Shown: positions 937 to 63,066 of the stretch, piece after piece
Layout of the letters: each line of letters starts with the position of its first letter
Numbering within the stretch: position 1 is the first letter of the stretch
IMG/VR virus record: IMGVR_UViG_3300042882_001508
From: a virus
DNA: 64,000 nt
Direction: 5' to 3' (one strand)
The notes under the pieces: model-generated
What the model saw: the letters and a program-made list of their open reading frames with translations, nothing else
What the model was told of the DNA's origin: nothing
Database searches by the model: none
Position numbers and translations under genes: made by a program

Positions 937-1554
937 TTAGTAACTTTTTTTTACTGACCAAGTTCCAAACCATTCATTTGTCAACGTTAATTCATATCCA
1001 TAATCTTCACAAAACTCATCAACTGCAGGATTTACACCAAAAACACCGTGATAAAAATTTCCATTCCAAATATGTTTGTCTTTTTTATTTGGTAAATAAT
1101 TTGGGTCATTGTACCAATCTAAATCAATATAATCGTGACCAAGGATATACCCACCAATTTTCACTTTTGGAAACCATAATTTGATGTCCTGAACAACATA
1201 ATCGTAAGCGTGATTTGCATCGATATATACAAAATCTAAAGAATGGTCGTTGAATATTTTTGCGGAAATTTCAGATGAGGCCCTAATCATTACGGCTCTG
1301 TCTTCATATCCCTCAATGTTTTTCATCGCCTCCTCGTAAACATTTTCACTTTGAAGTAGATGATTACTTGAATCTATATACCCATCTTTTAGTCCTCTCC
1401 AAACATCTACCATGTAGAGTGTACCATTCCAATTTTGAATTATTTGTTTGGAGAAAGAACCCTTGAAGGTTCCAACTTCAACACCAACCCCGTTCGGAAA
1501 CTGAGAACATATTTTTGACATCAATTCTACTCTGTTCAATCCATTTTTTTTCAT
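937..1554 (-). CDS. Class I SAM-dependent methyltransferase, Methyltransf_24/TylF-FkbM-like sugar O-methyltransferase type
   Basis: Has a motif-I-like VEVGTFKGSFS, then DFVYIDANH and GGYILGHDY. This spacing is typical of glycan or antibiotic O-methyltransferases. Confidence 0.5.
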   Translation of the reverse strand: MKKNGLNRVELMSKICSQFPNGVGVEVGTFKGSFSKQIIQNWNGTLYMVDVWRGLKDGYIDSSNHLLQSENVYEEAMKNIEGYEDRAVMIRASSEISAKIFNDHSLDFVYIDANHAYDYVVQDIKLWFPKVKIGGYILGHDYIDLDWYNDPNYLPNKKDKHIWNGNFYHGVFGVNPAVDEFCEDYGYELTLTNEWFGTWSVKKSY

Positions 1555-1561
1555 ATGAAAA

Positions 1562-2506
1562 TTATATTTTTACTATTTCAATTATTTTTTTAAAAACTTG
1601 ATTTACGTTAGGATGACAAAGAAATTCTTTTTTATTTTCTAAGCATCCAACCAAAGAAGGTATGCCTTTAATTGTATTCCAATATTTTACACCATATTTC
1701 ATATCAGATGCACAGGCTAGTTCACATTCACCTGAAATATAATGGTATTTGTAATTTTGTGTACCTTTTCTATAAGGGGCTCTCAGTTTGTAATTAACAG
1801 AACTACCAAGTTGAAAAATATTTGCATCGGTGGTTCCTGCCAAATGTAACATACCCGAATCCATAGTAACCACCCCTAATGATTTTTGCATCAACCACCA
1901 TGTTTGAGAAATATCCGCCTTGTTCAATAAATTTAAACCTAGATTTATTGGAAAATCAAATACAGGTTTTTGGACGTTGGAATTTCCAATCTCACTTGAG
2001 TTTTTACCAACAGACACGACTGAAATTCCAACATCATTGAGGAGAGAGGTTAATAAAACCCACTTATCATATGACCAAGTTCTTGAAGCCCAAGTCTGTA
2101 CGGGATGAATTATTATAAAATCTTTTGGTAAATTTTCAATTTCTATAAATTTGTCAGGAATAAATTCCATCTCCATCTCGTTTGGTAAAAGCTGAAACCC
2201 TAAGCCAGCGGCATGAAATTGTCTTATATCGAATTGATTATGACGTAAAGAAATTCCAAATTTGTTTTCTACATTTGGTAAAAAACTATTTAGCATTTCA
2301 TATCTATCCTCAAGTACCTCTCTGTTACTATTTTGGGTTGACCACAACTCACTAACAAAAGTATTGTTTTTGAAAATAATGGGATGGTGTGTAAGGACTG
2401 CAATCTTTTTACCATATGAGTAGTATAGTTTTTTTAATGTAGGGGTTGCACATATTGTGTCTCCCAATCCTCTTGACTCAGTTAAATCCAAACAGACTTC
2501 ACTCAT
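1562..2506 (-). CDS. GT9-like glycosyltransferase (heptosyltransferase family)
   Basis: N-terminal GLGDTICATPTLKKL resembles the GT9 family signature (LGD..xxTP). The protein is 314 aa, a typical GT9 size. Confidence 0.4.
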   Translation of the reverse strand: MSEVCLDLTESRGLGDTICATPTLKKLYYSYGKKIAVLTHHPIIFKNNTFVSELWSTQNSNREVLEDRYEMLNSFLPNVENKFGISLRHNQFDIRQFHAAGLGFQLLPNEMEMEFIPDKFIEIENLPKDFIIIHPVQTWASRTWSYDKWVLLTSLLNDVGISVVSVGKNSSEIGNSNVQKPVFDFPINLGLNLLNKADISQTWWLMQKSLGVVTMDSGMLHLAGTTDANIFQLGSSVNYKLRAPYRKGTQNYKYHYISGECELACASDMKYGVKYWNTIKGIPSLVGCLENKKEFLCHPNVNQVFKKIIEIVKI

Positions 2507-2568
2507 ATGAGAAAATTTAAATTTTTAATCCTGATTTACAAAAATAAAATTTAATTTAGTTTTTTCAT

Positions 2569-3495
2569 ATGGAAAGCCTAGCCAATGTGACCTCACTTTT
2601 CAAGTTTGATATTGTGGGTGATAAATATAAAATAACTTATCTCGGAAAGCCACCGATATATATAAATTTTTCGGTGAAACTGAAAGGTCTCAGTGTCCCT
2701 GTACAAACAATTAGGCACGAATATCAAACAAAAGGGGAATGGTTTATACCAAGTATTGATTATACGGGTTGTGCTATTTTGGAGGTAAGAAACTATGAAA
2801 CTAAGCAATACCTGTTCGATAAAGTTATAAACCCTGTGGTTAGTAAAAAAAGAAAAGAACAAAATATTATTTGTATTGGACTTAATAAGACAGGCACTAG
2901 TTCTTTCTCTGAATCCCTTCAAAAATTAGGATTTAGACTATCACCGGAAGGACTTAATTTTATGACTTGCGTTCAAGATGTACTTTTTGATGATTTAAAT
3001 TCTACATTTTCAATCTTGGAAAACGAGAGATATAATCTCTATGAAGACATGCCATATTCATTTCCATTACTTTACGAAAAAATTTACGAAAGAAGGCCTG
3101 AAGATGTTTTTGTTCTCACAGTAAGAAATGATGTCGAAACATGGATAAAATCTGTGATTAATTTTTATCCCTTACTCCAAAATAAAACAGAAAAAGAATG
3201 GGAAGACAAATCTTATATGAGATATGTGTGGAGTAATGAAAAAGACGATATTTTACTCAATAATCAATTTCCTTTATTAGATGCTTGGGGAATAAAAGAT
3301 ACCACAAATTTGGAGTCAAAACTTAGGGAAATTTATAATACTCATAATCAAAGTGCCATAGAATTTTTTTCACGGAAAAAATCAAATTTCATTGTAATCG
3401 ATGTGTCAAAAAAGAACGAACTTAAAAGATTGTCTAATTGGTTGGGAATTGAAACAAATCAAAATGATTTTGATTGGGTAAACAAAAACAGTTAA
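2569..3495 (+). CDS. Sulfotransferase-domain protein; the ~95 aa N-terminal domain is unknown
   Basis: IICIGLNKTGTSSFSE matches the sulfotransferase 5'-phosphosulfate-binding loop (xKTGTT). FVLTVRNDVETWIKS resembles the 3'-phosphate-binding RxxxxxxxS motif. The C-terminus has the L..WLGIE pattern typical of the family. Confidence 0.45.
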   Translation: MESLANVTSLFKFDIVGDKYKITYLGKPPIYINFSVKLKGLSVPVQTIRHEYQTKGEWFIPSIDYTGCAILEVRNYETKQYLFDKVINPVVSKKRKEQNIICIGLNKTGTSSFSESLQKLGFRLSPEGLNFMTCVQDVLFDDLNSTFSILENERYNLYEDMPYSFPLLYEKIYERRPEDVFVLTVRNDVETWIKSVINFYPLLQNKTEKEWEDKSYMRYVWSNEKDDILLNNQFPLLDAWGIKDTTNLESKLREIYNTHNQSAIEFFSRKKSNFIVIDVSKKNELKRLSNWLGIETNQNDFDWVNKNS

Positions 3496-3781: not shown

Positions 3782-6700
3782 ATGGCAGGTTATTATAATT
3801 TTTCAGGAACAAGTTGTACCGATGGACTAGACTATGAATTGTGGACCTTTTATCCACCAGGAGTAACAATTAGTATAGGTTCTGTTTTAAGCGGGGTTAC
3901 GACTTTGGATTATTATACAGTAATTTCTACACCTGTAATTACTCTATCACAACCAGGTTTTGAAGTAGATGGAAACGTAGATTATGGAAGTTGTCCAGCA
4001 ACTCCTACACCTACCGAAACACCCACAAATACTCCAACTCCGAGCGTAACCGAAAGTGAAACTCCAACTCAAACACCTACTCAAACTCCAACTCCCACAA
4101 CATATTGTCTTTGTAATTATTTCGACATGACTATAAGTCAAGCCGATTTGGATGCTGCCATTGGTAACATCACTTTCTTGAATAACACGGTTTATGTTCA
4201 ATATCTTGATTGTTATGGAAATTTTCAAATAACAACATACTCATCTGCAGGTAGTTTCCCAAATACTTTCTGTGCAAGATATGTTCAAGCAACATATTAT
4301 TATGTGAGTGATACACCTGTTGTAGCTGGTACTTCATTCCCTACTGACACATTTAATGATTGTTGTCCGACACCAACACCAACTGAAACATCTACTCAGA
4401 CCCCTACTGAAACACCATCCAATACTCCCACAGAAACCCCAACTCAGACACCTTCACAAACAACTAGCCAAACTCCAACTCAGACTGAAACGGCAACTCA
4501 AACTCCAACTGAGACGCCCACTCAAACCGCAACGCCATCTGCAACAGAAACGCCAACCCAAACTCCAACGGAAACTCCTACACAAACAGAGACAGCAACA
4601 CAAACTCCGACGGAAACTCCTACACAAACAGAAACACCTACACAAACCCCGACACCTGATAGTTCACCAACTCCAACACAAACTGAAACTCCGACAGAGA
4701 CTCCTACTGAAACCCCAACTCAGACTGCAAGTGAAACACCTACTGAAACTCCAACGCAAACCGAGACGCCTACACAAACTCCAACGCCTAATAGTACCCT
4801 AACACCTACTGCCACGGAGACTCCTACAGAAACTCCAACAGCGACCGAAACTCCAACGCAGACACCAAGTGATACGCCAACTCAAACTCCCACTGAAACA
4901 CCAACAGAAACTCCTACACAAACAGCTTCAGAAACTCCTACACAAACAGCCTCAGAAACTCCTACACAAACAGCTTCAGAAACTCCTACACAAACAGCTT
5001 CAGAAACTCCAACTGAGACGCCGACTCAAACTGCTACACCATCTACAACTCCAACGTTTGGGTTAACACCTACCTCAACAGAGACACAAACCCCTACTCA
5101 AACAGAGACCCCAACTCAGACCCCATCAAACACTTCTACTGAAACGCCAACACAAACAGAAACCCCAACAGAGACACCTACTGAAACTCCAACTCAAACT
5201 GCGAGTGAAACACCAACTGAGACCCCAACTCAAACAGAAACGGCCACACAAACTCCGACACCTGATAGTACCCAAACACCGACTGCGACGGAGACTCCTA
5301 CAGAAACTCCAACGGCGACCGAAACTCCTACACAAACCTCAACTCCAACACAAACACCTGGATTGACACCTACACAAACTACAACTCCAACTTTAACACC
5401 TGAGTTAGTCATTCAATTTGAGGAATGTGATTCAAACTTTGTATTTCGTTTTGCAGGTAGTCCGATGGCTTATCTCCCCGTTGATTCGGTTTATTTGATT
5501 GAGGGTAGTTTGGATTTTTCGGGCTGTGCTACGGTTGTGGCATATACTTCAGAAGGTCCACTTTATAATTCTGCTGGAGTTACATTTACTGAAATTGATT
5601 ACTGTGGTAATACGACTTACTGTCCAAGAACTGATAGAAAGGCTGCACAACTTGCAAGATGTAGGGATGGTCTGTTGAGTTATTTCATGGTGGATGTAGA
5701 CACTGCATTCCAATATGGTGTTTATTTCTATCAAGGAGATTGTTGGAAATTTGTAAGATTTGATGGACCTGGTGGTCCATACCTTGGTTCACCAAGTTAT
5801 TTCAGCTGCGAAGATACTGTATGTATACCAACACCAACACCAACTGTAACGCCAAGAGAAACACCAACACAAACTCCAACACCATCCCCAACTCCAACTG
5901 CTTGTCCTTATTCAACTTTTTGTTTTAGAACAACTCAACCTGACCTTGAGGACTTCAGTGGAAATTATACTGAGTATGGCTACGTATATAATGATGAACT
6001 AACTTATTCAGGAGATGGAATTAACATTGGAGTAATTTATTATTTCACATCTTCAACTGAGAGTTATTGGTGTTTAAGCACTTCTTTGGGTGGTTCATGT
6101 GTACTTAGAGGTTCATCACCTTGTAATTCGAACTGTCCTGACATCAGTGGAAACTTCTTCACTTCAGGTGTTTGTCCTACACCTACACCTTCACCATCTG
6201 CCTGCACAATTGACTTTGTTGCATATTTTGATTGTGATTGGGAACCTGTCCCGACGCCGACCTTGACTGTCACAGATGTTGATTTTGATGTAACAAGCAT
6301 TGGACTAACTCCAACACCAACCTCTACAAATCCATGTTTAGGTAAGGCTGTGGAATTCCAATTATATGAGTCTACACCTACACCAACACCATCAAACACC
6401 GCAACACCAACTAGCTCAAGAGTTTATGAACCAGTTGGAGGTAAAGTGTCGTTCGAAATCTTTGATTCACCAATCTCTTGTCCTGAAGTGGCTATTCTCA
6501 AAGAATGCACTCAAGGAACAGATTTCTACTTCTGCGCACAAAATCAATTGGTATTCAACGGTCTTGTTGTGGAACCTGGTACAATAATGAATGCAATTAT
6601 CAACGGACAGTATGTTTGCGTTGAATATATTGGTAATCGTTCTAACACTTCATCAAATTCTGTAATCACCTCTATTATCAACCTTTATTCAGATTGTCAG

Positions 6701-7657
6701 AGCTGTGTTGTTTTTCCAACACCAACAGTTACTCTCACTCCTACTCAAACTCAAACGCCATCTAATACTGCAACACCAACTCAAACCGCGACAGTAACAC
6801 CAACTACTACAACAACAAGAACACCAGATTTGACCCCTGACCCAACAACATCAATAACACCGACAAATACGGCTTCAAACACTCCTACACCGTCTTATAC
6901 TCAAACACCAACCCCAACCAATTTGCAAAAGTATTATGTGTTTACCCTCTGTCCTAATCAAGAAAGTACAATAAGATTTAATAGATTGTTCCAAACTTCA
7001 CCACTCACGGTTCCAATCCTTCCAACCAAAGTATTCACCGATGACAATGGTTTGTGCTGGACATATGAAGGATTCACAACAGCAATTGTTCCAAATCCAA
7101 ATTATGTTGACTTGATTTGGCAAGACAATTATTTCGGTACCGCGGGAGAATTGCAATCGGATACTTGTGACGAGTGCCTCACAACATCTACAAAAATAAA
7201 TCTTCAACTTCAAGTTTTCCCAAGCTTTGAGGGATATATCCCAAGTGGGGCAACAACAACATTTGATAGTCCAAACTTTGGCGTCTCTTTCTATGATGGA
7301 ATTGACCCGAATAATGGAACATTATTTTATCCACCATCTGATGTGTTGAACGACGGTGTAATTGTATTTAATTTGATTACCTTAATTGGTTCAGACCCTT
7401 ATTCAATTTCTAAGTTAGCGGTGGGAGTAATTCACGGAAGATTTTTCTCAAAGGCAAATGTTATTGTTAAAGCATATATTAATGGAGTTTTAGCAAGCCA
7501 AGTAACACAACTTATTGAAGGAAATAGTGAAAACTTCGGAATTCAAATTGGAGGTTTGTTTGAAGAAATAAACTGTGTATCGAACCCGTGTTTGAGAGAA
7601 TTAAATAGAGGAGACATATTACTTATAACAGTAGAACAAAATTCAGAAATAGGATAA
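3782..7657 (+). CDS. Giant Thr/Pro-repeat protein (1291 aa) with several Cys-bounded modules. Putative virion fibre or adhesin
   Basis: Long [11 protein letters not shown] linker blocks alternate with ~90 aa Cys-containing modules (CLCNYF...DCCPTP; ...CIPTPTPT). A ~400 aa non-repetitive C-terminal region follows. Confidence 0.7.
4922..5012 (+). repeat. Tandem 24 nt coding repeat (about 4 copies) encoding (TQTASETP)n
   Basis: acagcttcagaaactcctacacaa repeated four times with one or two substitutions. Confidence 0.8.
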
Positions 7658-7873
7658 ATGGCACTTACAATAACCATATCATCAATAACTGGCACGTCAC
7701 CTTACAATGTATATCTCTGTGAGGGAGATGGAACTGGATGTTTTTATATAAATCAGATTTCATCCACACCCTACACATTTGACATACCAGCACCCTATGA
7801 TACATCAACATCATATATGGTAAAAATAGTAGATGCTGTAGGTTGTATTATAACTTCCACTCAATCATTATGA
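7658..7873 (+). CDS. Small protein (71 aa) homologous to the N-terminal module of the next gene
   Basis: ITISSITGTSPYNVYLCEGDGTGCFYINQISSTPYTFDIPAPYD aligns with VTITSVTANTPVNIYYCDSLSASCVFVSSVATFPFVFDVPAPYD of the downstream protein. Its start codon abuts the upstream stop (TAAATG). Confidence 0.5.
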   Translation: MALTITISSITGTSPYNVYLCEGDGTGCFYINQISSTPYTFDIPAPYDTSTSYMVKIVDAVGCIITSTQSL

Positions 7874-9423
7874 GCCAACAAGTAACCATAACATCAGTAA
7901 CCGCAAACACACCAGTGAACATCTATTATTGTGATTCACTCAGTGCTTCCTGTGTTTTTGTTTCTAGTGTGGCTACATTCCCATTTGTATTTGACGTGCC
8001 AGCACCATACGACGAACAAAATTTTGTAATAAAAATTGAAGATACCTCAGGATTTGAAGATTATAAAACAATCGACATCACTCCTACCTCCACAAGTCAA
8101 CCCACCACAACTCCAACTAATACTCCGAGCCAAACTCCTACTCAGACACCAACGAATACACCCTCAAATACTACAACACCATCTCAAACGGGGACACCAA
8201 CTCAAACACCTTCTACATCAATTGAGGTATATCCCCCAATTCAACCGAGTCCAAATGTTGTTCAACACCCTGTAGGACAGAGTGTTGTTTGTGAAGCGGC
8301 AAATGCGTGTGATGATACCTTGACAACTAGAGTTCTATACAATTATGAAGCAGATGCTTCGGTGCAACCTGTGATAGGTATTACAATTTATTCTGCTTAT
8401 TTCAGTTCAGCTTTATACGACCCTTATAATGGCAACAACGAGTGGATTTTGATGAGTTGGATTAATGGAACCTATGCCGTACAGATTACACCACAGGGAA
8501 CAATCAAAAGTTTTGTTCTTTGTCAAGAAAATCCAACTCCTTCACCAACAAAAACGCCAACTACTACACCCACTAATACACCAACTCAAACTCAAACTCA
8601 GACACAAACACCAACGCAAACAGCAACACCTTCAACAACAGCAACGATAGGTCTAACCCCAACATCAACTGAAACACCAAGTCAAACCCCAACCCAAACT
8701 CCATCTACAACAACAACACTAACTGCAACACCAACCCAAACACCATCTCAAACTCAAACGCAAACCCAAACTCCATCTACAACAACAACACTAACTGCAA
8801 CACCAACCCAAACACCATCTCAAACTCAAACGCAAACCCAAACTCCTTCTAATACAGAAACACCGACACAAACTCCAACACCTTCAACTACTCCAATTTG
8901 TTGTAATTGCTTTGCATTGACAAACGAAGGAGACCCAACCAATACAAATACTACAAATTATACAGATTGTGATGGTAATCCACAATCTATTATAAATAAA
9001 ATACAATTTGCAACTGCAACTTACTTCTGTGCAGTTCCAGGGTCAATTACAACATCTGGAGGTTTGACCGTGCTCCAAGTTCCTGATGACCTACTCACTT
9101 GTGGTGGTTCTTGTCAACCATGTCCAACTCCTACACAAACCCCATCACAAACGGAAACACAAACCCAAACACCAACACCTTCACCAACACCAAATACTGG
9201 TTGTTATTCTTTAACAAATGAAGGAGACCCCACAGAAACCAATCTGACCACTTACACAGATTGTGATGGAAATCCACAATCAATTGTAAATAAAGCGTTC
9301 GAGTCAGGAGCAACTTACTTCTGTGCTCTTCCTGGTACAATCACATTTTCATCAGGTTTGACAGTAATAATGGTTGATGATAATTTAGGAACATGTGGAT
9401 ATAGTTGTGGAGGTTGTACATAA
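7870..9423 (+). CDS. Thr/Pro-repeat Cys-module protein. Putative fibre component
   Basis: Start revised to MSQQVTITS, an ATGA overlap with the upstream stop. It has TP/TQ linker blocks and two tandem ~80 aa Cys modules (CCNCFALTNEGDPT...CQPCPTP; GCYSLTNEGDPT...CGGCT). Confidence 0.7.
   Translation: MSQQVTITSVTANTPVNIYYCDSLSASCVFVSSVATFPFVFDVPAPYDEQNFVIKIEDTSGFEDYKTIDITPTSTSQPTTTPTNTPSQTPTQTPTNTPSNTTTPSQTGTPTQTPSTSIEVYPPIQPSPNVVQHPVGQSVVCEAANACDDTLTTRVLYNYEADASVQPVIGITIYSAYFSSALYDPYNGNNEWILMSWINGTYAVQITPQGTIKSFVLCQENPTPSPTKTPTTTPTNTPTQTQTQTQTPTQTATPSTTATIGLTPTSTETPSQTPTQTPSTTTTLTATPTQTPSQTQTQTQTPSTTTTLTATPTQTPSQTQTQTQTPSNTETPTQTPTPSTTPICCNCFALTNEGDPTNTNTTNYTDCDGNPQSIINKIQFATATYFCAVPGSITTSGGLTVLQVPDDLLTCGGSCQPCPTPTQTPSQTETQTQTPTPSPTPNTGCYSLTNEGDPTETNLTTYTDCDGNPQSIVNKAFESGATYFCALPGTITFSSGLTVIMVDDNLGTCGYSCGGCT
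8701..8844 (+). repeat. Tandem 72 nt coding repeat (2 copies) encoding [24 protein letters not shown]
   Basis: Two near-identical 72 nt units read directly from the sequence. Confidence 0.8.
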
Positions 9424-9455: not shown

Positions 9456-11654
9456 ATGTCTTGTAATTGTTACCATATCGAAATCCCACAATCCGTACAA
9501 ACCAACGGTGTTAATGAAATATATCTTTGGCAAAAACTTTGTAACTTATACTATATTGCTGGAGTTTGGAACGGCTCTCTTTTGACTTATATGGATGGAA
9601 CTACCGCGGTTTATGACCTGTGTTTGGACAACGAATATGGTATTGAATTTAGTTATGGGTTTAGTGGACCCAAATTCACAACATCTGAGGTTCCTGAAAT
9701 TACAGTAAATATTTTGGGTACTTGTACGGTAATTGGAGATTGTTATACACCACCAACACCCACTCAAACACAAACCCAAACTCAAACGCCATCGCCGACT
9801 CTTACATTAACAGCATCTCCAACCCAAACACCAAGCCAAACTCAGACACCATCACAAACCGGCACACCACCACCAACACCTACTCAAACACAAACCCAAA
9901 CTCAAACACCTTCACCCACAAAAGTTGTCTGTGGCATAGGAGTAACATCTCAAAGTTTTTATTATTATGATTGTTGTGGAAATCTGATATCATCTACTGG
10001 TGCAGGTCAAGAAGTGTCTTTTGATTACACTAAACCTTACCAAGGAGTTACAAAATTGAACCTCTCTACTTCCTCAGTTTGTCCAACTCCAACGCAGACT
10101 CAGACACCGAGCCAAACTCCAAGTCAAACCCAAACTCCAACACAAACACCATCTCAAACTCAAACGCAAACCCAAACGCCAACATCCACCCCTGTACCTA
10201 CGTGTTCTGCTCAACCAAATTTAGCCAACGAGTGTGAAGTTTTCACTCTATTCGATATGGGAGTTCAATGTAACTTGATTAAAGAGCCAACTGTCGGAAG
10301 ATTTGATGGTATATTATCAGTTAATGTGACAGGTGGAACAGCACCTTATACTTTCTATTGGAATACTGGTGAAAGGACTCAAACCATTTCTAACATACCT
10401 TATGGAAGGTACACAGTTCTTGTTGTGGATTATTATGGAGATTATTCCGCCACAACTGCGTGTAATATATTGGCTCCAACACCAACAGCTACTACCACAC
10501 CAACAATCACACCCACACCGTCAACAACACCACCTAACGCTCCACCGTTGTGTTTAAGATTTGTTTCACCTCCGAGTTTTGGAGGGTCTGGTGGCTCTGC
10601 TATGTATAAGGAATTACCTCTGACTTTCGTGACCTCTGGAAACCAAAACGGGAAACCAACGTGGTATAATTATTCAAAAAATCTTTCGATTATTTGGAAT
10701 GACTCAGTAACTCCTAACAGATGGGATATAACAAATTGGCCTTACGGAGGAACACCTATTTCAACAAACCAAGGAACAATACCAGATACAGGATGGCAGT
10801 TCTTGGGTACACCGGGTGTTTATTCCCAAATTGTTTCATCAAGGGGTCAATGTCCTTCGGTTTCTCCATTAGTTTTTGAATATCAAATAACACCAGCTTC
10901 TTGTCCAGGAGTTTGTAACGGAAGTTTGGTGGTTGTGCCAGGAGGAGGAATGACACCATTCAGCTACTCGGTTGATGGCGTTAATTTCCAAAGTTCAAAT
11001 ATTTTCAACAACTTGTGTCCTTCTACTTTCGGTCTTACAATAAAAGATGCTGTAAATCAAACTTATAGTCAATCCATAACAATTGGTTCAGGAACAGCAA
11101 CTACTTTGCAATTGAAACCTGAAATCATTACAAGTAATGGACCTGTCGCAAGTGGACCAAGTGTACAGACAGTAACATGGAAAATAACTTCTAATCCACC
11201 AATACCTGCTGGTGTTTCTTTAACAGGTCAAATCTTGTTCGAAATTTCACAAACAGAACAAGGTCCGACTAGCAGTTCAGGTCCAGCGACAACTTATTTA
11301 ATCAATGCATCTAACGTTGCAATTCAAAATAATTCTACATTAACTTTGTTGACATCTCCTATCATAACTCAAAGTGTCCCGAGTACTTGTAATTCAGCTC
11401 TTGTTTCAGCTTCGAATGAAAATTACTCACAATCAACTCTTGTTACTTTAGGAAATGGATTTATTTTGACAGGTACAACTGTTTCATCATTGAATATTAC
11501 GGGTGGAATTACTCAATTTAACTGTTCAACTACAGCTAAACAAACAATTTCGTTGACCCTTTCAAATTTCAAAGTTTTAGGAAATCCGTGTTACACGGTA
11601 CAAACACAGAATTTGGTATTGGTCAATAATCATACTTACACAATTTCGAGTTAG
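9456..11654 (+). CDS. Thr/Pro-linker protein carrying SprB-type repeats. Putative adhesin-like fibre or receptor-binding protein
   Basis: Two segments fit the SprB repeat pattern of Flavobacterium gliding adhesins: GRFDGILSVNVTGGTAPYTFYWNTGERTQTISNIPYGRYTVLVVDYYGDY and CNGSLVVVPGGGMTPFSYSVDGVNFQSSNIFNNLCPSTFGLTIKDAVNQ. TP/TQ linkers and an N-terminal Cys module (SCNCYHI...GDCYTPPTP) are also present. Confidence 0.7.
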   Translation: MSCNCYHIEIPQSVQTNGVNEIYLWQKLCNLYYIAGVWNGSLLTYMDGTTAVYDLCLDNEYGIEFSYGFSGPKFTTSEVPEITVNILGTCTVIGDCYTPPTPTQTQTQTQTPSPTLTLTASPTQTPSQTQTPSQTGTPPPTPTQTQTQTQTPSPTKVVCGIGVTSQSFYYYDCCGNLISSTGAGQEVSFDYTKPYQGVTKLNLSTSSVCPTPTQTQTPSQTPSQTQTPTQTPSQTQTQTQTPTSTPVPTCSAQPNLANECEVFTLFDMGVQCNLIKEPTVGRFDGILSVNVTGGTAPYTFYWNTGERTQTISNIPYGRYTVLVVDYYGDYSATTACNILAPTPTATTTPTITPTPSTTPPNAPPLCLRFVSPPSFGGSGGSAMYKELPLTFVTSGNQNGKPTWYNYSKNLSIIWNDSVTPNRWDITNWPYGGTPISTNQGTIPDTGWQFLGTPGVYSQIVSSRGQCPSVSPLVFEYQITPASCPGVCNGSLVVVPGGGMTPFSYSVDGVNFQSSNIFNNLCPSTFGLTIKDAVNQTYSQSITIGSGTATTLQLKPEIITSNGPVASGPSVQTVTWKITSNPPIPAGVSLTGQILFEISQTEQGPTSSSGPATTYLINASNVAIQNNSTLTLLTSPIITQSVPSTCNSALVSASNENYSQSTLVTLGNGFILTGTTVSSLNITGGITQFNCSTTAKQTISLTLSNFKVLGNPCYTVQTQNLVLVNNHTYTISS

Positions 11655-11692: not shown

Positions 11693-13942
11693 ATGGGTTA
11701 CGTAATTAAAAATACATCTGGTTTAATTAACACAAGATTGACTGACGTTGGAAGAAGACAAATCTCCCAAGGAAGTTTCAATATTTCTTATTTTCAAATT
11801 GGAGATAGTGAAGTTTGTTACACCGCAGCTACGAATTACAATCAGGTTAACAACAACATCTTAATGCCTTCTTTTGATGCTCAAAATAACACAGGTTATC
11901 CAGAAGCAAACAAAGAGAATATCAAATACCCATATTATGTTTCAGGTGGACAGGGTGGTACATTTGGAATACCATTCATGGCTAGTGATTACCAATTGGT
12001 TTACAACAGTGCCGGTTTAAAAGGATTTTTCAACACGGGCTCAACCACACCTTGGGTTGCTCAGATAAGTACAGCTTACACAATAACCTCCAATTATGTT
12101 GTAGATATGTCTACATGTTCAGGTCAGACTTCAATTTCAATTGAACTTGACCCTACTATTTGTGCGACCACAACAGGAACACCTTCAATAGGTGATTTTA
12201 TAACAATTTTCTTTGACGGAGTGGGTAGTTGTCAAGATGTTAACAATGTGCCAATATTGACTTACAAGATTATCAATTTATCACCGTCAGTTGGAACTAC
12301 AAGTCAGAGCCCTTGGGTTGTTACATTAGATAGAGAGGTCCCTAATTATACTGCACTTACATCAGGAAGTTATGCGAGAACACTAATTTACCCTTCGGGT
12401 ATGACTGTTCTTTATGATTTTATTACACCAGCACCTTATTGGCAAACTGATACCTTGAATTTTGAATCTCCGTGTGATGTGACTAATAGAGAAAATACTT
12501 TGATTTGGAATATGAATATTCCTTGGTCAGAGAGTCCAGCGGGAGTGTTTTCAAACACGGTACAGGGGTATCAATATTACGATTCAATTTCTTATTTAGG
12601 TTCAAAAGAATATTTGGGATATTCAACACAATCAGGTCAAACATTTGAAATTTCCACCACAAGAGCAAACGAACTAACTGACACATATTATTATAATTCC
12701 TATGGTGAAGAGGTTAAAGTATACCCAAATCAACAGAAAGCCATTGCAATAATCCATTACACAAATCAAGATATTGATTTTGTCTATGGTGAAAAGTTTG
12801 CTACAGTTCCTTTTGACCCACAAAACCCAACAGACGATACAGGACTTGCTCGTCATTTCAAACTTTATATTCCAACATTGATGTGGCATAAATCGACAGG
12901 AGCTACAATCGGTCAGACTTTCATGATTGACCCACCGAATTATGATTTGTGTAAACCACATTATATGAAGTCTACCAAAAACCTGAGAATGAATGAACCA
13001 GGTATGAGGTATTTCCAACTTTGGGATTTAAATCCAGATGCTAATAATAATTTGAACAGGGTAGGTAAAGTTTTCCCTGACCAACAAATTATTGTAATCG
13101 ATGATGAAGAGATTGTTGCTGCGTTATCTAACAAGTCTAATAGAAATTGGACCCTTACAGCCCCAAAAGTAAGTGCAGTTGTTCCAAATGTTTGTAGTAC
13201 AAATAATAATCTTCCTTTGTTTACACAGGCCTCAGATACAATTTGGCTGTCATATAGATTAGACTCAAATTCAAGTGGTTTTACAAATTCATTACATTGT
13301 AACTACTACTCCAAGGTAAATGCGCCAAGTAACACTACGGCAACAAATTGTTATAATTTGGCTGTTCAATTTGGAAACGAATTTCCCTATTTGAACTCAA
13401 ATTGGAGTTCTACTAACGTCACAGGTTTTAGTGCAAACTCAATCAAATTATTGGTTCAGAAAGTAAGTGGAGATACAAAACCTTCACAAACTGAATGGAG
13501 AGAAATCGACGTTACTTCAGATATTTCAAGTACGTTGTTGAACGGATACTTAACCGTAAGTGGAATAACAGGAAACACTTTCCAAATAGACGGTACAACT
13601 TTTGACAATGCGGCTCCTAACACCTACAACCTTTCCAATTATATCGATATTCCCTTACTTGGTGCAACAGGACCAACTTTAAACTTTGGTGGTGAGTATT
13701 ATTTTTACGGGAGTTTGGAAACTGATATTGCGGCAACTATCTACGAAATGAAATATCTTGTGAATTTGGGTAGAAACCAATTTACAAATACTTCGAACCC
13801 TACATGGATGTCAGGGACAACATCTTATGTCACCGAAATTGGTCTTTACGATTCAAATTATAATCTTATAGTTATATCTAAACTACAATCTCCTGAGAAA
13901 AGACAAGGTGTTCAGCAGTATGTAGTTAAATTAGATTTCTAA
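11693..13942 (+). CDS. Large virion-associated protein (749 aa), function unknown. Possibly fibre or baseplate associated
   Basis: A long ORF with uniform codon usage that follows the fibre-like genes. No motif was recognised. Confidence 0.5.
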   Translation: MGYVIKNTSGLINTRLTDVGRRQISQGSFNISYFQIGDSEVCYTAATNYNQVNNNILMPSFDAQNNTGYPEANKENIKYPYYVSGGQGGTFGIPFMASDYQLVYNSAGLKGFFNTGSTTPWVAQISTAYTITSNYVVDMSTCSGQTSISIELDPTICATTTGTPSIGDFITIFFDGVGSCQDVNNVPILTYKIINLSPSVGTTSQSPWVVTLDREVPNYTALTSGSYARTLIYPSGMTVLYDFITPAPYWQTDTLNFESPCDVTNRENTLIWNMNIPWSESPAGVFSNTVQGYQYYDSISYLGSKEYLGYSTQSGQTFEISTTRANELTDTYYYNSYGEEVKVYPNQQKAIAIIHYTNQDIDFVYGEKFATVPFDPQNPTDDTGLARHFKLYIPTLMWHKSTGATIGQTFMIDPPNYDLCKPHYMKSTKNLRMNEPGMRYFQLWDLNPDANNNLNRVGKVFPDQQIIVIDDEEIVAALSNKSNRNWTLTAPKVSAVVPNVCSTNNNLPLFTQASDTIWLSYRLDSNSSGFTNSLHCNYYSKVNAPSNTTATNCYNLAVQFGNEFPYLNSNWSSTNVTGFSANSIKLLVQKVSGDTKPSQTEWREIDVTSDISSTLLNGYLTVSGITGNTFQIDGTTFDNAAPNTYNLSNYIDIPLLGATGPTLNFGGEYYFYGSLETDIAATIYEMKYLVNLGRNQFTNTSNPTWMSGTTSYVTEIGLYDSNYNLIVISKLQSPEKRQGVQQYVVKLDF

Positions 13943-23524: not shown

Positions 23525-24322
23525 ATGAAAGAAAAATCAGTAATCCCTATCAATCAAGAAGAAATTTCGAGTTACCTCAAAGACATTCGTAAAATTACTG
23601 TCATGACTCCTGAGAGAGAAAGAGAATTGGCAGAGAAAATGCTCAATCCCAATACATCTAATAAGGAAAAAGATGAAATTAAGAAAGAACTATTGGAAGG
23701 AAATCTCCGATTTGTAATTACTGTTTCTAAACAGTATCAAAATCAAGGATTAGATTTCCCTGACTTGGTTGCAGAAGGCAATTACGGATTAATGAAGGCA
23801 ATCGAAAATTTCGATTGGTCAAAAAAACTAAGATTTATTTCATACGCCGTTTGGTGGGTACGTCAGTCCATTCTTCAATCATTGAACGAGAACGCTAGAA
23901 CCATACGTCTTCCTGTAAACGTTGTACAAGAACTCCAAAAAGCAAAAAAAGAATTAGACAATGCTGGAGTTGAACTCCCTGATAAGTTTGTAAATCTTCC
24001 CTATACAGTAGATTTGGATAGTCCTCTCAACGAGGATGGTGACACACTTATGGATGTTTTGATAAACCCAAATGCAGATGCTGCTGATACTTGTGAATCA
24101 ACCGAGCAAACTCTTAAAGATAAATTGTTGTCTATGTTAGATGTCTTGGACGAACGAGAGAGGGTGATTATTGAGGATTATTTCGGTCTCACAGGTAACA
24201 CTAGAACCCTTGAAGATATTGGTAATGATTTTGATTTAACTAAGGAGAGGGTCCGACAAATTAAGGAGAAAGCCCTTCGAAAACTCCGAAATGAAACAGG
24301 AATTCTATTTGACTTCCTATAA
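23525..24322 (+). CDS. Sigma-70 family RNA polymerase sigma factor, Bacteroidetes sigma-A-like
   Basis: Region 2 RFVITVSKQYQNQGLDFPDLVAEGNYGLMKAIENFD and FISYAVWWVRQSI are close to Bacteroidetes RpoD. Region 4 helix-turn-helix is TLEDIGNDFDLTKERVRQIKEKALRKLR. A hairpin terminator follows the gene. Confidence 0.8.
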   Translation: MKEKSVIPINQEEISSYLKDIRKITVMTPERERELAEKMLNPNTSNKEKDEIKKELLEGNLRFVITVSKQYQNQGLDFPDLVAEGNYGLMKAIENFDWSKKLRFISYAVWWVRQSILQSLNENARTIRLPVNVVQELQKAKKELDNAGVELPDKFVNLPYTVDLDSPLNEDGDTLMDVLINPNADAADTCESTEQTLKDKLLSMLDVLDERERVIIEDYFGLTGNTRTLEDIGNDFDLTKERVRQIKEKALRKLRNETGILFDFL

Positions 24323-27192: not shown

Positions 27193-27437
27193 TGGCACTC
27201 ACAAATTCAGAAATCAAAGAGATTGAAAGATTAATCCGTAAAGAGATAAGAGACTTTATGGAAACGTCTACAATCAAACAGTACGAAGATAAAATTTTGG
27301 ACAAAGTTCAAAAAGAAATCAAAAGGGGGAAGCTTGAAGGTGAGATTAAAGAAATTACTATAAAAATGTTCAGAGAATTTTATCAATTCATGTGGCAGAA
27401 CAGAAGTTATTGGGAACCAAGATTAAAAAATGCTTGA
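27192..27437 (+). CDS. Hypothetical protein
   Basis: ORF with tight coupling to its neighbours. Confidence 0.35.
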   Translation: MALTNSEIKEIERLIRKEIRDFMETSTIKQYEDKILDKVQKEIKRGKLEGEIKEITIKMFREFYQFMWQNRSYWEPRLKNA

Positions 27438-28572
27438 TATGAAAAGTAGTAGGAATGAATTTACAAATGCATTGAAATCCAATTTTTCCGCAGCGATGGG
27501 AGGGGCACAAACCCAAACTTTAATGCAAGACCTCAACAAGTTTTCAAAAGAAATGAAAGAAGATTTGGAAGGTGGAAAATCGGACAAAAAAACTCTTTTG
27601 GACCTTGCAATCAAACATGCAATGAAAGACAAAGTTTTGACCACTGGTCATAAAATAAATTCAATACTTGGAATTTTGAAATCTGAATTAAAAAAGGGTT
27701 TAGAAGTAGAAAAGGAACATACTGACAATGAGGAAACCGCTCGAGAAATTGCTATGGACCATTTGGCTGAAGACCCTCACTATTACACAAAGCTCAAAAA
27801 AATGGAAAACAATGAACAGATTATAAGAAAATCCGTTAAGAAAGGAATTGCGGACAAATTAATAGGAACAAATAAAATGGAAAAACCAATCGGTAAACTT
27901 TATTCTATAGGTAAATCTGAGACCAAAGAAAATGTTGGAAACTCAGCTAAAAGAGAATTTGCAAAAGATTTACAAATGGATAAAGATTATTTGGAATTTA
28001 AAAAGAACGCAAAAAAAAAGGAGGGGTATAAAGAATTCAATTATGGTGTTCCGAATGTAACGGTAGACGACCCATACATAAAGAAAACTAAATACAGTAG
28101 ACCCGGGAAGGAAGAAGCCACAGAAGCAACAAGTTCTGGTTCGAGTGGAGCTTATTCGGCACCTTTATTTGGTGGAGATAATGAATTTATTAAAAAAAGT
28201 GATAAAGAAACTCCGAAACTTGAAGAGGGTATCGCCGTTGGTGCTATGGGGTTAGACAAAGTTGAAGCGACTGAGGCAACAAGTTCGAGTTCAGTAGGTG
28301 GATATTCTACACCAGCAATGTGGGCAAAATCTACGAAGAAAAAGGACTGGGGACCTTCAAGAAAGACTCAGTATAAAGGAGGACAGTTTGTTCAAGTAAA
28401 GAAAAAATGTACCAAGTTTCCTTATTGCAATCAGGGAGACATCAACGCACTCAAACTTTCCAAAAACGAATCAGTTCAAAAAGCAATTAAAGAAGTTTCT
28501 AAAAAACATAATATTAGTGAAGACGTAATCAAAACAATTTTAGAGTATGAATATTCTAAAATTAAACCATAA
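27430..28572 (+). CDS. Lys/Glu-rich protein (scaffold or internal virion protein candidate)
   Basis: Highly charged low-complexity sequence. It contains the duplicated motif EATEATSSGSSGAYSAP / EATEATSSSSVGGYSTP. Confidence 0.45.
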   Translation: MLDMKSSRNEFTNALKSNFSAAMGGAQTQTLMQDLNKFSKEMKEDLEGGKSDKKTLLDLAIKHAMKDKVLTTGHKINSILGILKSELKKGLEVEKEHTDNEETAREIAMDHLAEDPHYYTKLKKMENNEQIIRKSVKKGIADKLIGTNKMEKPIGKLYSIGKSETKENVGNSAKREFAKDLQMDKDYLEFKKNAKKKEGYKEFNYGVPNVTVDDPYIKKTKYSRPGKEEATEATSSGSSGAYSAPLFGGDNEFIKKSDKETPKLEEGIAVGAMGLDKVEATEATSSSSVGGYSTPAMWAKSTKKKDWGPSRKTQYKGGQFVQVKKKCTKFPYCNQGDINALKLSKNESVQKAIKEVSKKHNISEDVIKTILEYEYSKIKP

Positions 28573-28599
28573 AACTAGATATTTATAAAGAAAAATAGA

Positions 28600-30093
28600 A
28601 TGGAAAATTTCGAAAAAAATTTAGACAATATGATTTCGAAGATACTCAAAGAGGAAATCGAAACAAAAAGTAAAACTATATTGGAAAGACTCGAAGAGGG
28701 TGGTGAGTGGACTGAGATTGAAGTTGATGAAGCACTTCATGGTGGTCAAAAAAAATTAGACAAAAACAAAAACGGTAAAATTGATGCCGAGGATTTCAAA
28801 CTTTTGAGAAAAAAGAAATCTCATAAAAAAGAGATGGACGAATTTTTCTTCGAAGACGAAGCTATAGAAGATGCTGAAGAAGCTTCGCAACAAGAACCAA
28901 CTTATGTTGGTAAAGGTTTGGAGGAAGCTGAAACTGAAGAAGGAAATGCATTTACAGGTGCTTTAGCCGATGCTAAGAAAGAAGGAAAAAAAACATTCAA
29001 AGTTGGAGAAAAAACCTTTGACGTTAAAGAAGAAAGACATGATTTTGACGGAAGAAAAAGTGAAGTTATCGGGGTATATTCGAACATCGACAAACAAAGA
29101 AAAGAAATGGGTGAAAAGTGGGAAGGTGATGTTGAAGTAAAACAAACAGGTGAATATTCTGGCATGTCAATTGAGGAATTGAATGCGGCAATAAAAAAAT
29201 TGAAAACTAAAAACGACAAAGCTAAAGATGCGGGTAAAAAAGTCCCTCATGCGGACAGAACCAAAATGAGTCAACTTTATTTTGCTAAAAGAGCAAAACA
29301 AGGATGGAAAGGTAAAGGTAAAGCTGCGGTTAAGGAAAGTTTACAATTAAGTGAGGAAGAACTTATTGACTTGATTGAGACTATTGTTATGGAACAGAAA
29401 GTAAAAGACATTGCAGAAAAAAATAATATTACCAATAAAAAAGCTGAAGGTTTGAAAAAAACAGAGAAAGTTTTGAAAGCCGATAAGAAAGAAAATGATG
29501 ATTATGCTAAAGAGGTAGTAAAGAAAATGAAAGAGTATGTAAAAGCTGGTTCTGTCGGTGAATATAACGAATCTCCTGAGAGTTTTCCTCAAAGTAATTA
29601 CACTATGGGTAAAATGAAAGAGAAAACTATGAAGTATCATCCATCTCAAGCGGTGGACGAGTATATAGAGGCTTTTGCTTTCCCTGGTATGACAAATTTG
29701 GTTTATGATGAAATTAAACCTGATGAGAAAAAAATTGAAAAACATTTGAAGGGCGACAGTACTACAGGAAATGCTGTTAAAGATAAAGACGGAAAAGCTT
29801 TAGGTAATGTTGTTCCTAGTGAAGTCGGAGAAAGATTCATGAAGAATTTCGAGGATAACTTATATGGTGCAGAACAAATGAATGTTTCTTATAAAAGACA
29901 ACCACAACCAGTTGATGTTGGTGGAACAGATAAAATGGATGGTTCTTTGAAGAGTATAAGAAAAGGTTCTACCAAGAAGGCTGAAAAAATCATGAACCAA
30001 CTTGAGTCTTCTGAAGATAGAAAAGATGAAATTATAAAAGAAGAGATGAATAAGATGATGAATCTCATTACTTACAACAAAAAGACGCAGTAA
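28600..30093 (+). CDS. Lys/Glu-rich protein
   Basis: 497 aa with a strongly charged composition. A strong hairpin plus T-run terminator follows it. Confidence 0.45.
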   Translation: MENFEKNLDNMISKILKEEIETKSKTILERLEEGGEWTEIEVDEALHGGQKKLDKNKNGKIDAEDFKLLRKKKSHKKEMDEFFFEDEAIEDAEEASQQEPTYVGKGLEEAETEEGNAFTGALADAKKEGKKTFKVGEKTFDVKEERHDFDGRKSEVIGVYSNIDKQRKEMGEKWEGDVEVKQTGEYSGMSIEELNAAIKKLKTKNDKAKDAGKKVPHADRTKMSQLYFAKRAKQGWKGKGKAAVKESLQLSEEELIDLIETIVMEQKVKDIAEKNNITNKKAEGLKKTEKVLKADKKENDDYAKEVVKKMKEYVKAGSVGEYNESPESFPQSNYTMGKMKEKTMKYHPSQAVDEYIEAFAFPGMTNLVYDEIKPDEKKIEKHLKGDSTTGNAVKDKDGKALGNVVPSEVGERFMKNFEDNLYGAEQMNVSYKRQPQPVDVGGTDKMDGSLKSIRKGSTKKAEKIMNQLESSEDRKDEIIKEEMNKMMNLITYNKKTQ

Positions 30094-32460: not shown

Positions 32461-33378
32461 ATGAAAGATTACTATAAAATATTAGAAGTTGAAGAGAATG
32501 CGACTGATGACGAAATCAAAAAAAGTTTTAGAAATCTGTCCAAAAGATATCATCCCGATTTAAATCCCGAAGGGGCTGAAAAATTTAAAGAAATTAATGA
32601 GGCTTATGAGGTTCTTGGGGACCAACAAAAAAGGTCAAACTACAACAACCAAAAAAACAATCCCTATGGTGGTACACCTTTCGAAGCAATTTTTTCTCAA
32701 ATGTTTGGAAACAGAGGTCCCAACCAACCAAGAAGAAAGCAAGCACCCGATAAGATTGTAAAAGTCAGTGTTTCACCAATTGAGTCATATCGAGGCTCTC
32801 AAAAAAATATAATGTATTTCAGAGACACTCATTGTGCTACTTGTAACGGTACAGGGGGTGACCAAAGAATTTGTAATACTTGTGAGGGAAGTGGTTTTAT
32901 AATAAAAACTTTTGGAACAGGTTTTATGGTTCAACAAATAAGAACCGCATGTCCTTCTTGTCAGGGAAAGGGATATAATTTAATTTCAAGGTGTTATGAC
33001 TGTCAAGGAAGAGGAACAAAATCATCCAAAAATGAAATTTCAATAAATCTACCTGTTGGGGTTGATAATGGTCAGTTTGTTAAAATTCCTAACGTGGGAG
33101 ATTTCAAAAGTGGAGACTATGGAGATTTGATTTTACAAATTGAACTTGAACCAAAAGATGGTTTCGAAAAGATTAATAGTGATTTGGTTTACACTTTATA
33201 TTTGGATTTGAATGGGATAAATTCCGACAAATATAAAATCCCTCATCCCGACGGGGAACTTCAAATTCCGGCACCCAAATCCTTTGATACCTCCAAACCA
33301 CTCAGACTGAGAGGTAAGGGATATAGTGGAGGGGATATGTATGTTAAATTACAAGTAAAGTTTGAAAGAACTAATTAA
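32461..33378 (+). CDS. dnaJ: DnaJ-like co-chaperone with a J domain and a CxxCxGxG zinc-finger domain
   Basis: J domain DYYKILEVEENATDDEIKKSFRNLSKRYHPDLN carries the HPD motif. Four CxxCxGxG repeats follow (CATCNGTGG, CNTCEGSGF, CPSCQGKGY, CYDCQGRGT). Confidence 0.75.
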   Translation: MKDYYKILEVEENATDDEIKKSFRNLSKRYHPDLNPEGAEKFKEINEAYEVLGDQQKRSNYNNQKNNPYGGTPFEAIFSQMFGNRGPNQPRRKQAPDKIVKVSVSPIESYRGSQKNIMYFRDTHCATCNGTGGDQRICNTCEGSGFIIKTFGTGFMVQQIRTACPSCQGKGYNLISRCYDCQGRGTKSSKNEISINLPVGVDNGQFVKIPNVGDFKSGDYGDLILQIELEPKDGFEKINSDLVYTLYLDLNGINSDKYKIPHPDGELQIPAPKSFDTSKPLRLRGKGYSGGDMYVKLQVKFERTN

Positions 33379-37898: not shown

Positions 37899-38234
37899 GT
37901 GAAAAAACCTGAATTCATACAAAAAATCGAAGGTGAAAGAAAAACTTTTTCATCGTATGTTCTAAAAGATATGAAAATAACTTTTCCTAAGAACTTACAA
38001 GAAAAAAAATATTTTCCTGTCTATTCTGAAAGGATACATGAACAAGACGGTAAAACAGTACTTTTACGTTATATACTCAAATCTGCTCAGGGATTTTATC
38101 TATGTTTTGATAAATCCGTAGAAAACAATTCATATCAAATTACTATTTATTTTGAGGAGTCACAGGACACGGAATTACAATTTTTCATTAAAAATTTTCT
38201 TAAAACATTTAAAAATGATACAACTGACAACTGA
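37899..38234 (+). CDS. Hypothetical protein
   Basis: ORF. Confidence 0.35.
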   Translation: MKKPEFIQKIEGERKTFSSYVLKDMKITFPKNLQEKKYFPVYSERIHEQDGKTVLLRYILKSAQGFYLCFDKSVENNSYQITIYFEESQDTELQFFIKNFLKTFKNDTTDN

Positions 38235-38538
38235 AGAACTAAAACAAAAAATTAACAATGGTGAAAACTTCGTCTTGGATTTATATGCAACATGGTGTGG
38301 TCCTTGCAAAGTGATGTTAAGAAACTTGGAACAAGTGAATGAATCCTTGATAAAAGAATCAACAAATCAACCAAAATATAAAATTTATAAGTACGATATC
38401 GACACTGACAAAGAGTTTGTCGTATCTGAACTTGGAATTAGAAGTGTCCCAACGATAAAAATCTTCAAGGAGGGAAAAGAAGTTTTTTCAAGACCTGGCG
38501 TAATGATGCCAACTGAACTACTCACTTTATTAAATTAA
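38215..38538 (+). CDS. trx: Thioredoxin
   Basis: WCGPC active site in a ~105 aa protein. Start revised to MIQLTTEEL at 38215. Confidence 0.75.
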   Translation: MIQLTTEELKQKINNGENFVLDLYATWCGPCKVMLRNLEQVNESLIKESTNQPKYKIYKYDIDTDKEFVVSELGIRSVPTIKIFKEGKEVFSRPGVMMPTELLTLLN

Positions 38539-44772: not shown

Positions 44773-44773
44773 G

Positions 44774-62523: not shown

Positions 62524-63066
62524 ATGTTTGATAAACTTATTGACGTAATAGTAACTTTCATTAATGACATTCTACCTTGGAAAATCGTTGACCAGTGGGA
62601 ACAAGGAGTTCATCTTAGAACTGGAAAGTTTCTTAGAGTAGTTATTCCCGGTTTGAATTGGAAAATTCCCTTTTTCGACCAAATTTTAACTACACCTGTC
62701 ATTACTCAGACAGTAAACCTAAAACCTCAAACTGTAACATCTTTGGACGAGAGAAGTGTCGTTCTCTCAAGCATTGTTCGTTATCACATCGATGACGTTG
62801 AAAAATTTTTGTTGGGTGTAATGCACGCAAACGATGTTCTAATCGATACAACACAGGGAATTATCAGAGACGTAGTAGAGAGCTCAAACTGGAGCGACCT
62901 CTACGAACTTGGTAACACTGTTACACCTGCTGTTAATAATGAAGTGGAGAAGTGGGGTATTGTGGTGGAACAAATAAGTTTTCCTGACTTAGGGGAAATT
63001 GTGACTTATAGGATTATGGGAGACTCCTATAAAAATCCATCGGGAATTTTGCCATTAGTAGAGTAA
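62524..63066 (+). CDS. Hypothetical protein
   Basis: ORF preceded by a perfect TTTG-N19-TATCTTTG promoter. Confidence 0.45.
   Translation: MFDKLIDVIVTFINDILPWKIVDQWEQGVHLRTGKFLRVVIPGLNWKIPFFDQILTTPVITQTVNLKPQTVTSLDERSVVLSSIVRYHIDDVEKFLLGVMHANDVLIDTTQGIIRDVVESSNWSDLYELGNTVTPAVNNEVEKWGIVVEQISFPDLGEIVTYRIMGDSYKNPSGILPLVE

Follow-up and report, generated by a model that had tools for sequence, protein, structure and literature searches.

Why does a phage encode SprB repeats, a domain type typical of Bacteroidota? The question is raised by a gene at positions 9456..11654 (+ strand) of a 64,000-nucleotide stretch of IMG/VR virus record IMGVR_UViG_3300042882_001508, which we refer to here as the window. 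The gene encodes a 732-aa protein of six β domains and three Thr/Pro/Gln linkers, as delimited from its open reading frame (ORF), the architecture of its homologues and an AlphaFold2 (AF2) model. A sequence-only reading of the window had taken it for part of a phage genome and had recognised two segments of SprB repeat in a fibre-like protein, proposing that they had been acquired from the host and might serve the phage to interact with, or to mimic, the gliding machinery. Our analysis bears out the two repeats, points to immunoglobulin-like (Ig-like) domains of phage virions as their closest known counterparts, and suggests that the protein is probably a virion fibre or whisker, with little to recommend the link to gliding.

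Two SprB-type repeats in one phage gene

When searched against the Pfam SprB repeat family (PF13573, gathering cut-off 28 bits), the whole 732-aa protein scored 33.9 bits (E = 2.4e-8) over two stretches, and this was the sole Pfam family to match it at E ≤ 1. Scored alone, repeat 1 reached 33.5 bits (E = 3.2e-8; aa 281-305, nt 10296-10370) and repeat 2 reached 24.1 bits (E = 2.7e-5; aa 477-509, nt 10884-10982), so that the second is significant by itself yet lies under the cut-off. A better fit to generic Ig or PKD domains was also looked for, and no Ig, PKD or Big family in Pfam matched either repeat even at E ≤ 10; pb10, a T5 phage decoration protein that served as a control, matches Ig_2, Ig_3, I-set and PKD besides SprB. 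The two segments that the sequence-only reading had picked out are therefore SprB repeats by their Pfam scores and lie within one real gene. We set the full limits of both domains from the family alignment and the structure model, which places the first (SprB1) at aa 257-340 (10224..10475, + strand) and the second (SprB2) at aa 470-548 (10863..11099, + strand). The span of 10200-11050 previously given for them covers both repeats, with the second reaching some 50 nt beyond it. The motif as first written needs a similar adjustment: both of its elements occur inside the gene, but in a six-frame translation of the window the core matches repeat 2 only and G-x-Y-x-V-x-V-x-D matches repeat 1 only, and the core needs one extra residue. 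As observed, the core is GG-x-x-P-[YF]-x-[YF]-x-[WV], which reads GGTAPYTFYW in repeat 1 and GGMTPFSYSV in repeat 2. Both repeats are kept in all 50 of the 50 aligned homologues, and PHROG 26672, named 'virion structural protein', matches aa 498-547 in repeat 2 (E = 4.2e-5).

The AF2 model, which was built on a 50-sequence alignment, has a mean pLDDT of 80 over the 732 residues and values mostly above 90 in the structured domains. It confidently predicts six all-β domains (aa 1-97, 156-209, 266-340, 363-470, 473-545 and 549-732) and, between domains, three Thr/Pro/Gln-rich linkers of 22-58 residues each, all with pLDDT below 50. Both SprB domains are predicted as six-stranded β domains, SprB1 with pLDDT values of 90-93 over aa 271-340. 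The remaining four domains, all on the + strand, are an N-terminal β domain that is variable or replaced in homologues (aa 1-97; 9456..9746), a small Cys-containing β domain with the motif Y-x-DC-x-GN and pLDDT above 90 (aa 156-209; 9921..10082), a Trp-rich and phage-specific middle β domain (aa 363-469; 10542..10862), and a variable C-terminal β-sandwich region with block-mean pLDDT mostly above 90 (aa 549-732; 11100..11651). When these pieces were scanned separately, none had a significant Pfam match at E ≤ 10. The predicted arrangement of β domains on long Thr/Pro linkers makes the protein look like a fibre, much as the sequence-only reading had supposed.

We also looked for signals of export. 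An NCBIfam scan of the phage protein found no C-terminal domain (CTD) of the type IX secretion system (T9SS), of either type B (TIGR04131) or type A (TIGR04183), and no signal peptide is evident by eye, as the N-terminus MSCNCYHIEIPQSVQ is without a basic n-region or a hydrophobic h-region (no predictor was run). Because both signals appear to be lacking, the protein is likely to be synthesised in the cytoplasm, as is the case for virion proteins.

Relationship to Ig-like domains of phage virions

A profile of the phage repeats searched against PDB sequences retrieved the putative neck-whisker protein gp24 of the Shigella siphophage Sf11 (9occ_A, E = 1.2e-6), the Ig-like C-terminal domain of T5 pb10 (5lxk_A, E = 2.6e-4) and full-length pb10 (8zvi_a, E about 2.6e-4). 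In the opposite direction, Pfam SprB gives the pb10 domain 27.2 bits, compared to 28.8 from Ig_2 and 27.4 from Ig_3, and gives the Sf11 domain 21.9 bits. Because the profile finds pb10 and Sf11, and both of these in turn score on Pfam SprB, the SprB repeat is, as judged from these sequence comparisons, one branch of the Ig-like domains common on phage virions, including virions of phages whose hosts do not glide. The SprB repeat typical of Bacteroidota can thus be viewed as a variety of the Ig-like domains often seen on tailed phages.

Structural searches gave a compatible picture. Foldseek comparison of the whole model with the PDB returned integrin legs, Aureispira GhpA and lambda gpJ, all of them generic Ig-like strings, at TM-scores that were very low because the model consists of beads on a string. 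Among viral models the top match was A0A6J5LDA4 (677 aa, E = 2.6e-20), which carries the record name 'SprB repeat [uncultured Caudovirales phage]', and the next matches were A0A0F7ILJ5 of Polaribacter phage P12002S (679 aa) and several tail proteins. Together with A0A6J5LD72 and A0A6J5MUM3 (UniProt/BFVD), these two are probably members or relatives of the phage family to which the window protein belongs. Automatic record names had already flagged SprB repeats in uncultured phages; our literature search found no experimental or published analysis of the A0A6J5 entries, for which 'SprB repeat' is a record name only, and no prior discussion of the SprB repeat or PF13573 in phages.

The window repeats share an Ig-like β-sandwich of ~80 aa with T5 pb10 (5lxk, 8zvi; PMC5292684), Sf11 gp24 (9occ; PMC12724387) and T4 Hoc (PMC10385173), and the signature GGxxPYxYxW...GxYxVxVxD is common to them and the pb10/Sf11-type domains. 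These known proteins are surface-exposed, non-essential-looking appendages with a presumed role in weak adhesion, and for the window protein we infer a comparable site on the virion. It differs from all three in having two such domains amid four unrelated, phage-specific β domains and Thr/Pro linkers, and from pb10 in that its repeats match SprB only and not Ig_2, Ig_3 or PKD. No capsid- or neck-binding domain of the Hoc, pb10 or whisker type was recognised in it.

Our favoured explanation, to which we assign a probability of roughly 0.6, is that the protein forms a fibre or whisker on the virion and that its SprB-type Ig-like domains serve for adhesion. The string of six small all-β domains on extended Thr/Pro/Gln-rich linkers would project from the virion surface, and the SprB domains would bind weakly and reversibly to the host envelope or to particle-bound glycans, proteins or polymers. 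Such contacts would hold the virion close to the cell and so improve adsorption, which is the role that has been proposed for the Ig-like domains of T4 Hoc, T5 pb10 and neck whiskers. Alternatively, SprB1, as the most conserved domain, might dock the fibre onto a conserved partner, and in either case the variable termini would carry lineage-specific functions. The protein is therefore a concrete candidate for adsorption and host-range studies in a phage lineage that has no cultured member.

Conservation of the domains within a large phage family

More than 760 homologues were found in a collection of 5.8 billion proteins, many of them full-length at 36-62% identity. Relatives are also present on at least 365 viral contigs of IMG/VR, the longest of these contigs being 296-321 kb. 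Domain order is constant throughout the homologue alignment, in which some members have extra C-terminal domains. Among phages, mean pairwise identity is highest of all in SprB1 (64-65%), followed by the small Cys domain (54%), SprB2 (47%) and the middle domain (44%), and it falls to 33-35% in the C-terminal region and to 31% in the N-terminal domain, which is often replaced. A profile of the middle domain matches phage-type homologues only. Neither the 732-aa protein nor the 749-aa protein encoded next to it has a relative among 50,697 GenBank phage records by DNA or protein searches, and the lineage is therefore one for which no deposited relative is detectable there. We conclude that the window protein belongs to a large, uncharacterised family of putative appendage proteins in abundant aquatic jumbo phages.

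These identities bear on the rather doubtful possibility that the SprB-type domains are inert spacers or stabilisers that set the length and stiffness of the fibre, with receptor binding left to a variable C- or N-terminal domain. Phage fibres and cellular adhesins often employ Ig-like domains as spacers, a use that the strings returned by Foldseek bring to mind, and such a division of labour would agree with the termini being the most variable parts of the protein and with the additional C-terminal domains of some homologues. One would not expect a pure spacer, however, to show the highest conservation within the protein, as SprB1 does (64% against 44-54% for the other internal domains), and the long Thr/Pro linkers already give spacing.

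A full-length, 747-aa homologue of the phage type was also found on a 6-kb contig (CAZWRD010000167.1) within a metagenome-assembled genome labelled 'uncultured Bacteroides sp.'. It is probably a phage contig that was co-binned with a Bacteroidota genome, and as such gives a weak hint of the host.

Cellular SprB repeats and a plausible ancient exchange

A scan of 185,579 species genomes yielded 374 relatives from 600 pattern matches examined, and 80 loci were kept. All but two of the kept loci (78/80) belong to Bacteroidota, with Roseivirga, Lishizhenia, Crocinitomicaceae, Chitinophaga, Saprospiraceae and Tenacibaculum among them. The SprB1 and SprB2 profiles match 80 of the 80 loci, in 101-102 ORFs and with a period of ~80 aa. 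Profiles built from the four other domains (N-terminal, Cys, middle and C-terminal), by contrast, find nothing in these loci beyond the co-binned contig, which has the full-length phage-type homologue; all other kept loci match in the repeat region only. For comparison we used cellular ORFs that were intact inside the fetched loci. These encode proteins of 2000-4000 aa with 10-48 tandem repeats of ~80 aa, and a T9SS CTD of type A or B was detected in all three of the three proteins tested, in two of them above the curated cut-off and in one just below it. The phage protein thus resembles SprB of F. johnsoniae and other SprB-repeat T9SS proteins (PF13573) in repeat type, motif and ~80-aa period, and is unlike them in that it has 732 aa, no CTD, and two isolated, divergent repeats set apart by an unrelated 107-aa domain and a linker, and in that the scanned loci offer no cellular counterpart to its remaining four domains. 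Among solved structures, phmmer found no cellular SprB repeat when a cellular tandem segment was used as the query.

Repeat 1 and repeat 2 share a mean identity of only 20% with each other, compared to 28-29% between either of them and the cellular repeats, and the best true cellular repeat is 45% identical to window repeat 1 and 43% identical to window repeat 2. On the evidence of these alignments, the phage repeats are homologous to the SprB repeats of Bacteroidota and are old, fixed and individually specialised modules. Given that 78 of the 80 cellular loci are from Bacteroidota, an ultimate exchange with that phylum, in whichever direction, is plausible. Any such transfer would be ancient rather than recent, because the two repeats share 20% identity, neither exceeds 45% identity to a cellular one, SprB1 is conserved at 64%, and both are fixed throughout a family of more than 760 homologues. 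The host acquisition put forward by the sequence-only reading is therefore plausible in part, as an exchange with Bacteroidota at some point, and is not supported as a recent event.

Two recent origins were considered and rejected. Recent capture from a host is inconsistent with an identity of no more than 45% to any cellular repeat found and with the fixation of the repeats across more than 760 homologues. Recent internal duplication is inconsistent with the 20% mutual identity, which is lower than that of either repeat to the cellular repeats.

Searching the 50,697 GenBank phage records with a tandem cellular SprB query retrieved two uncultured huge phages only, LR756502 and LR745206. In the first of these, a 642-kb genome, the locus LR756502.1 510796-523947 holds an ORF that spans at least 1675 aa and has 13 SprB-type repeats in tandem, an architecture much nearer to the cellular type than that of the two-repeat family.

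The proposed link to gliding motility

In the sequence-only reading, the SprB repeats came from the host and might let the phage interact with, or imitate, its gliding machinery. This could work, for example, through homotypic binding to SprB-like filaments, with the virion then being carried along the track on the cell surface to its receptor, or by the repeats acting as an SprB decoy. We consider this very unlikely, even though several observations agree with it. Nearly all cellular relatives of the repeats are Bacteroidota surface proteins of the T9SS type, the phage host is probably a member of that phylum (see below), and SprB1 is strongly conserved, as would be expected of a domain with a conserved partner. 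Mutants of Flavobacterium in sprB and in gliding or T9SS genes resist some phages. For F. psychrophilum, PMC9804748 treats reversible mutations of gliding genes as a phage defence.

The architecture of the phage protein is nevertheless difficult to reconcile with such a role. It is without a T9SS CTD of type A or B by NCBIfam, and the C-terminal region of SprB is reportedly required for both secretion and propulsion (Kulkarni et al. 2019). It has two isolated repeats where the cellular proteins have 10-48 in tandem, and these repeats, at no more than 45% identity to any cellular repeat found and 20% to each other, are fixed across a very large phage family. The same Ig-like subtype moreover occurs on phages of non-gliding enterobacteria, namely in T5 pb10 and in Sf11, and among Bacteroidota SprB repeats are found in many surface proteins besides SprB. 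To our knowledge, no homotypic binding has been described for SprB repeats. Given the missing CTD and the repeat number, the suggested interaction with, or mimicry of, the gliding machinery is thus not supported, and neither is a motif specific to gliding bacteria, given its presence in T5 pb10 and the Sf11 whiskers.

A related speculation is that a lineage of Bacteroidota jumbo phages binds SprB-repeat filaments of its hosts homotypically, so that the virion is captured and perhaps moved along the surface track to an entry site. The target filaments could then be gliding adhesins or other giant T9SS proteins. We regard this as the least probable of the readings discussed here; if it were true, it would represent a receptor strategy based on self-recognition of domains between phage and host proteins. 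The finding itself reveals no new mechanism, and the link to gliding motility is speculation.

Genomic neighbourhood and probable location on the virion

The gene immediately downstream (11693..13942, + strand) encodes a 749-aa protein that is probably a tail or baseplate component, since its fold matches include phage tail and baseplate proteins. It is much more conserved than the SprB-repeat protein: over 3137 homologues share 66-99% identity with it, and 616 clusters were found at 50%. It lies no more than 10 kb from the SprB-repeat gene in 83 of 84 viral loci. The same gene order is present in freshwater contigs and in one 321-kb IMG/VR genome. A sequence-profile search of the PDB with the 749-aa protein gave a tail-tube match only, which was non-significant (E = 0.52), and a PHROGs search with 43 members of its family gave nothing. 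The adjoining position of this protein adds to the fibre-like appearance of the SprB-repeat protein noted in the sequence-only reading.

Upstream are two genes for proteins with Thr/Pro linkers, of 1291 aa (3782-7657) and 526 aa (7843-9423), both on the + strand and recognised from their translations and a motif scan; PHROG 15511 (function unknown) was matched in the region of this pair (3782..9423). With the SprB-repeat gene in third place, three consecutive genes of the same build, with Thr/Pro linkers and small domains of the DCxGN type, form one cluster. The motif Y-x-DC-x-GN occurs four times across the three genes (4202, 8959, 9253 and 9963, + strand). The domain that carries it has no significant Pfam match and, in the scanned genome loci, was present only in the phage-type homologue, and it may be an undescribed phage appendage module.

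Alternatively, the protein may not be part of the virion at all, being released at lysis or having a role inside the infected cell or at its surface, such as superinfection exclusion or surface modification. We think this unlikely. It would explain why the cluster abuts genes for replication and recombination rather than capsid or tail genes. On the other hand, the protein would have no route to the surface before lysis, given that no T9SS signal was found and no signal peptide was seen by eye. Its all-β, linker-rich build and its fold matches to tail, decoration and whisker proteins are those of an appendage, and it is linked in 83 of 84 loci to the 749-aa protein with structural matches to tail and baseplate components.

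Several observations weigh against a virion fibre with SprB adhesion modules, and they account for the reserve with which we put it forward. First, the match to the PHROG of virion structural proteins spans repeat 2 only, so the place of the whole protein on the virion is one that we infer. Second, the SprB cluster abuts replication genes and is outside a classical structural module, with no capsid, portal or sheath gene within the 64-kb window. Third, both termini are variable and the centre is conserved, whereas the usual fibre has a conserved N-terminal anchor and a variable tip. Fourth, the protein has many conserved Cys residues, which the cytoplasm would keep in a reduced state. Lastly, we know of no ligand for any SprB repeat.

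Directly before this cluster of Thr/Pro-rich proteins, the region 937-3495 (both strands) encodes a methyltransferase (Methyltransf_24), a glycosyltransferase (GT9) and a sulfotransferase (Sulfotransfer_4), and a glycosyltransferase-like gene is found at the same position in the 321-kb relative. One possibility suggested by these genes is that the phage modifies its own Thr-rich linkers and so glycosylates its virion.

Signals of a probable Bacteroidota host and a probable jumbo-phage genome

Shine-Dalgarno-like sequences (GGAG, GAGG or AGGA at -20 to -4) precede 3 of 42 genes with ATG starts, compared to a frequency of 14.6% in random windows. The sequence TAnnTTTG, on the other hand, is enriched 5.4-fold in the 60 nt upstream of genes on the sense strand (14 hits; p = 7e-7 by a binomial test), against 4 in the antisense control. 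It is often located just 12-30 nt before start codons (for example at 14578, 21950, 22967, 36261 and 62497), which implies very short leaders. The lack of Shine-Dalgarno use and TAnnTTTG as the -7 promoter motif are hallmarks of Bacteroidota, and these two signals lead us to place the host probably in that phylum. The best match to the primase is in a Flavobacterium phage (31% identity). The SprB-repeat gene can itself be read as a marker of the host phylum, which agrees with the independent signals from absent Shine-Dalgarno sites and TAnnTTTG promoters.

The window is probably part of the genome of a large uncultured phage of ~300 kb. Moraphages are freshwater jumbo phages with genomes of up to 307 kb and predicted Bacteroidota hosts, whose genes include those for DnaJ, a sigma factor, a primase and an exonuclease subunit (PMC12619734). 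The window is like them in having DnaJ, sigma-70, primase and SbcCD, in its aquatic setting and in its relatives of 296-321 kb, a likeness of gene content, habitat and genome size; moraphages are described in that paper without mention of SprB repeats or collagen-like fibres (PMC12619734).

Other genes of the window

The phage nature of the genome, as assumed in the sequence-only reading, is confirmed by genes for a RuvC-like resolvase, a DnaG-type primase, an exonuclease, SbcC and SbcD, an Amidase_2 lysin, a sigma factor, and collagen-like fibres with Peptidase_S74. The collagen repeats, RuvC and its absence from phage databases also raised the idea of a eukaryotic giant virus, which we discarded in view of the sigma-70 factor, the DnaG-type primase, SbcCD, the Peptidase_S74 fibres, the amidase and the phage relatives in IMG/VR. 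The sigma-70 factor (23525-24322) has regions 1.2, 2 and 4; further genes encode a full-length DnaJ (32461-33378), a thioredoxin (38152-38538) and an SPFH/Band 7 protein (62524-63066), and the single tRNA gene of the window is a tRNA-Met (60290-60366). Two adjacent genes at 27430-30093 (+ strand) encode Lys/Glu-rich proteins of 380 and 497 aa that have no PHROG family.

A second fibre cluster, separate from that of the SprB-repeat gene, comprises three genes for collagen Gly-X-Y proteins of 895, 819 and 832 aa (39626-47272, + strand). The Peptidase_S74 chaperone end is confirmed by Pfam in the first two of these and was recognised by eye from the translation in the third. The GC content of the collagen genes is ~50%, compared to ~33% elsewhere in the window, presumably as a result of their Gly, Ala, Pro and Gln codons.

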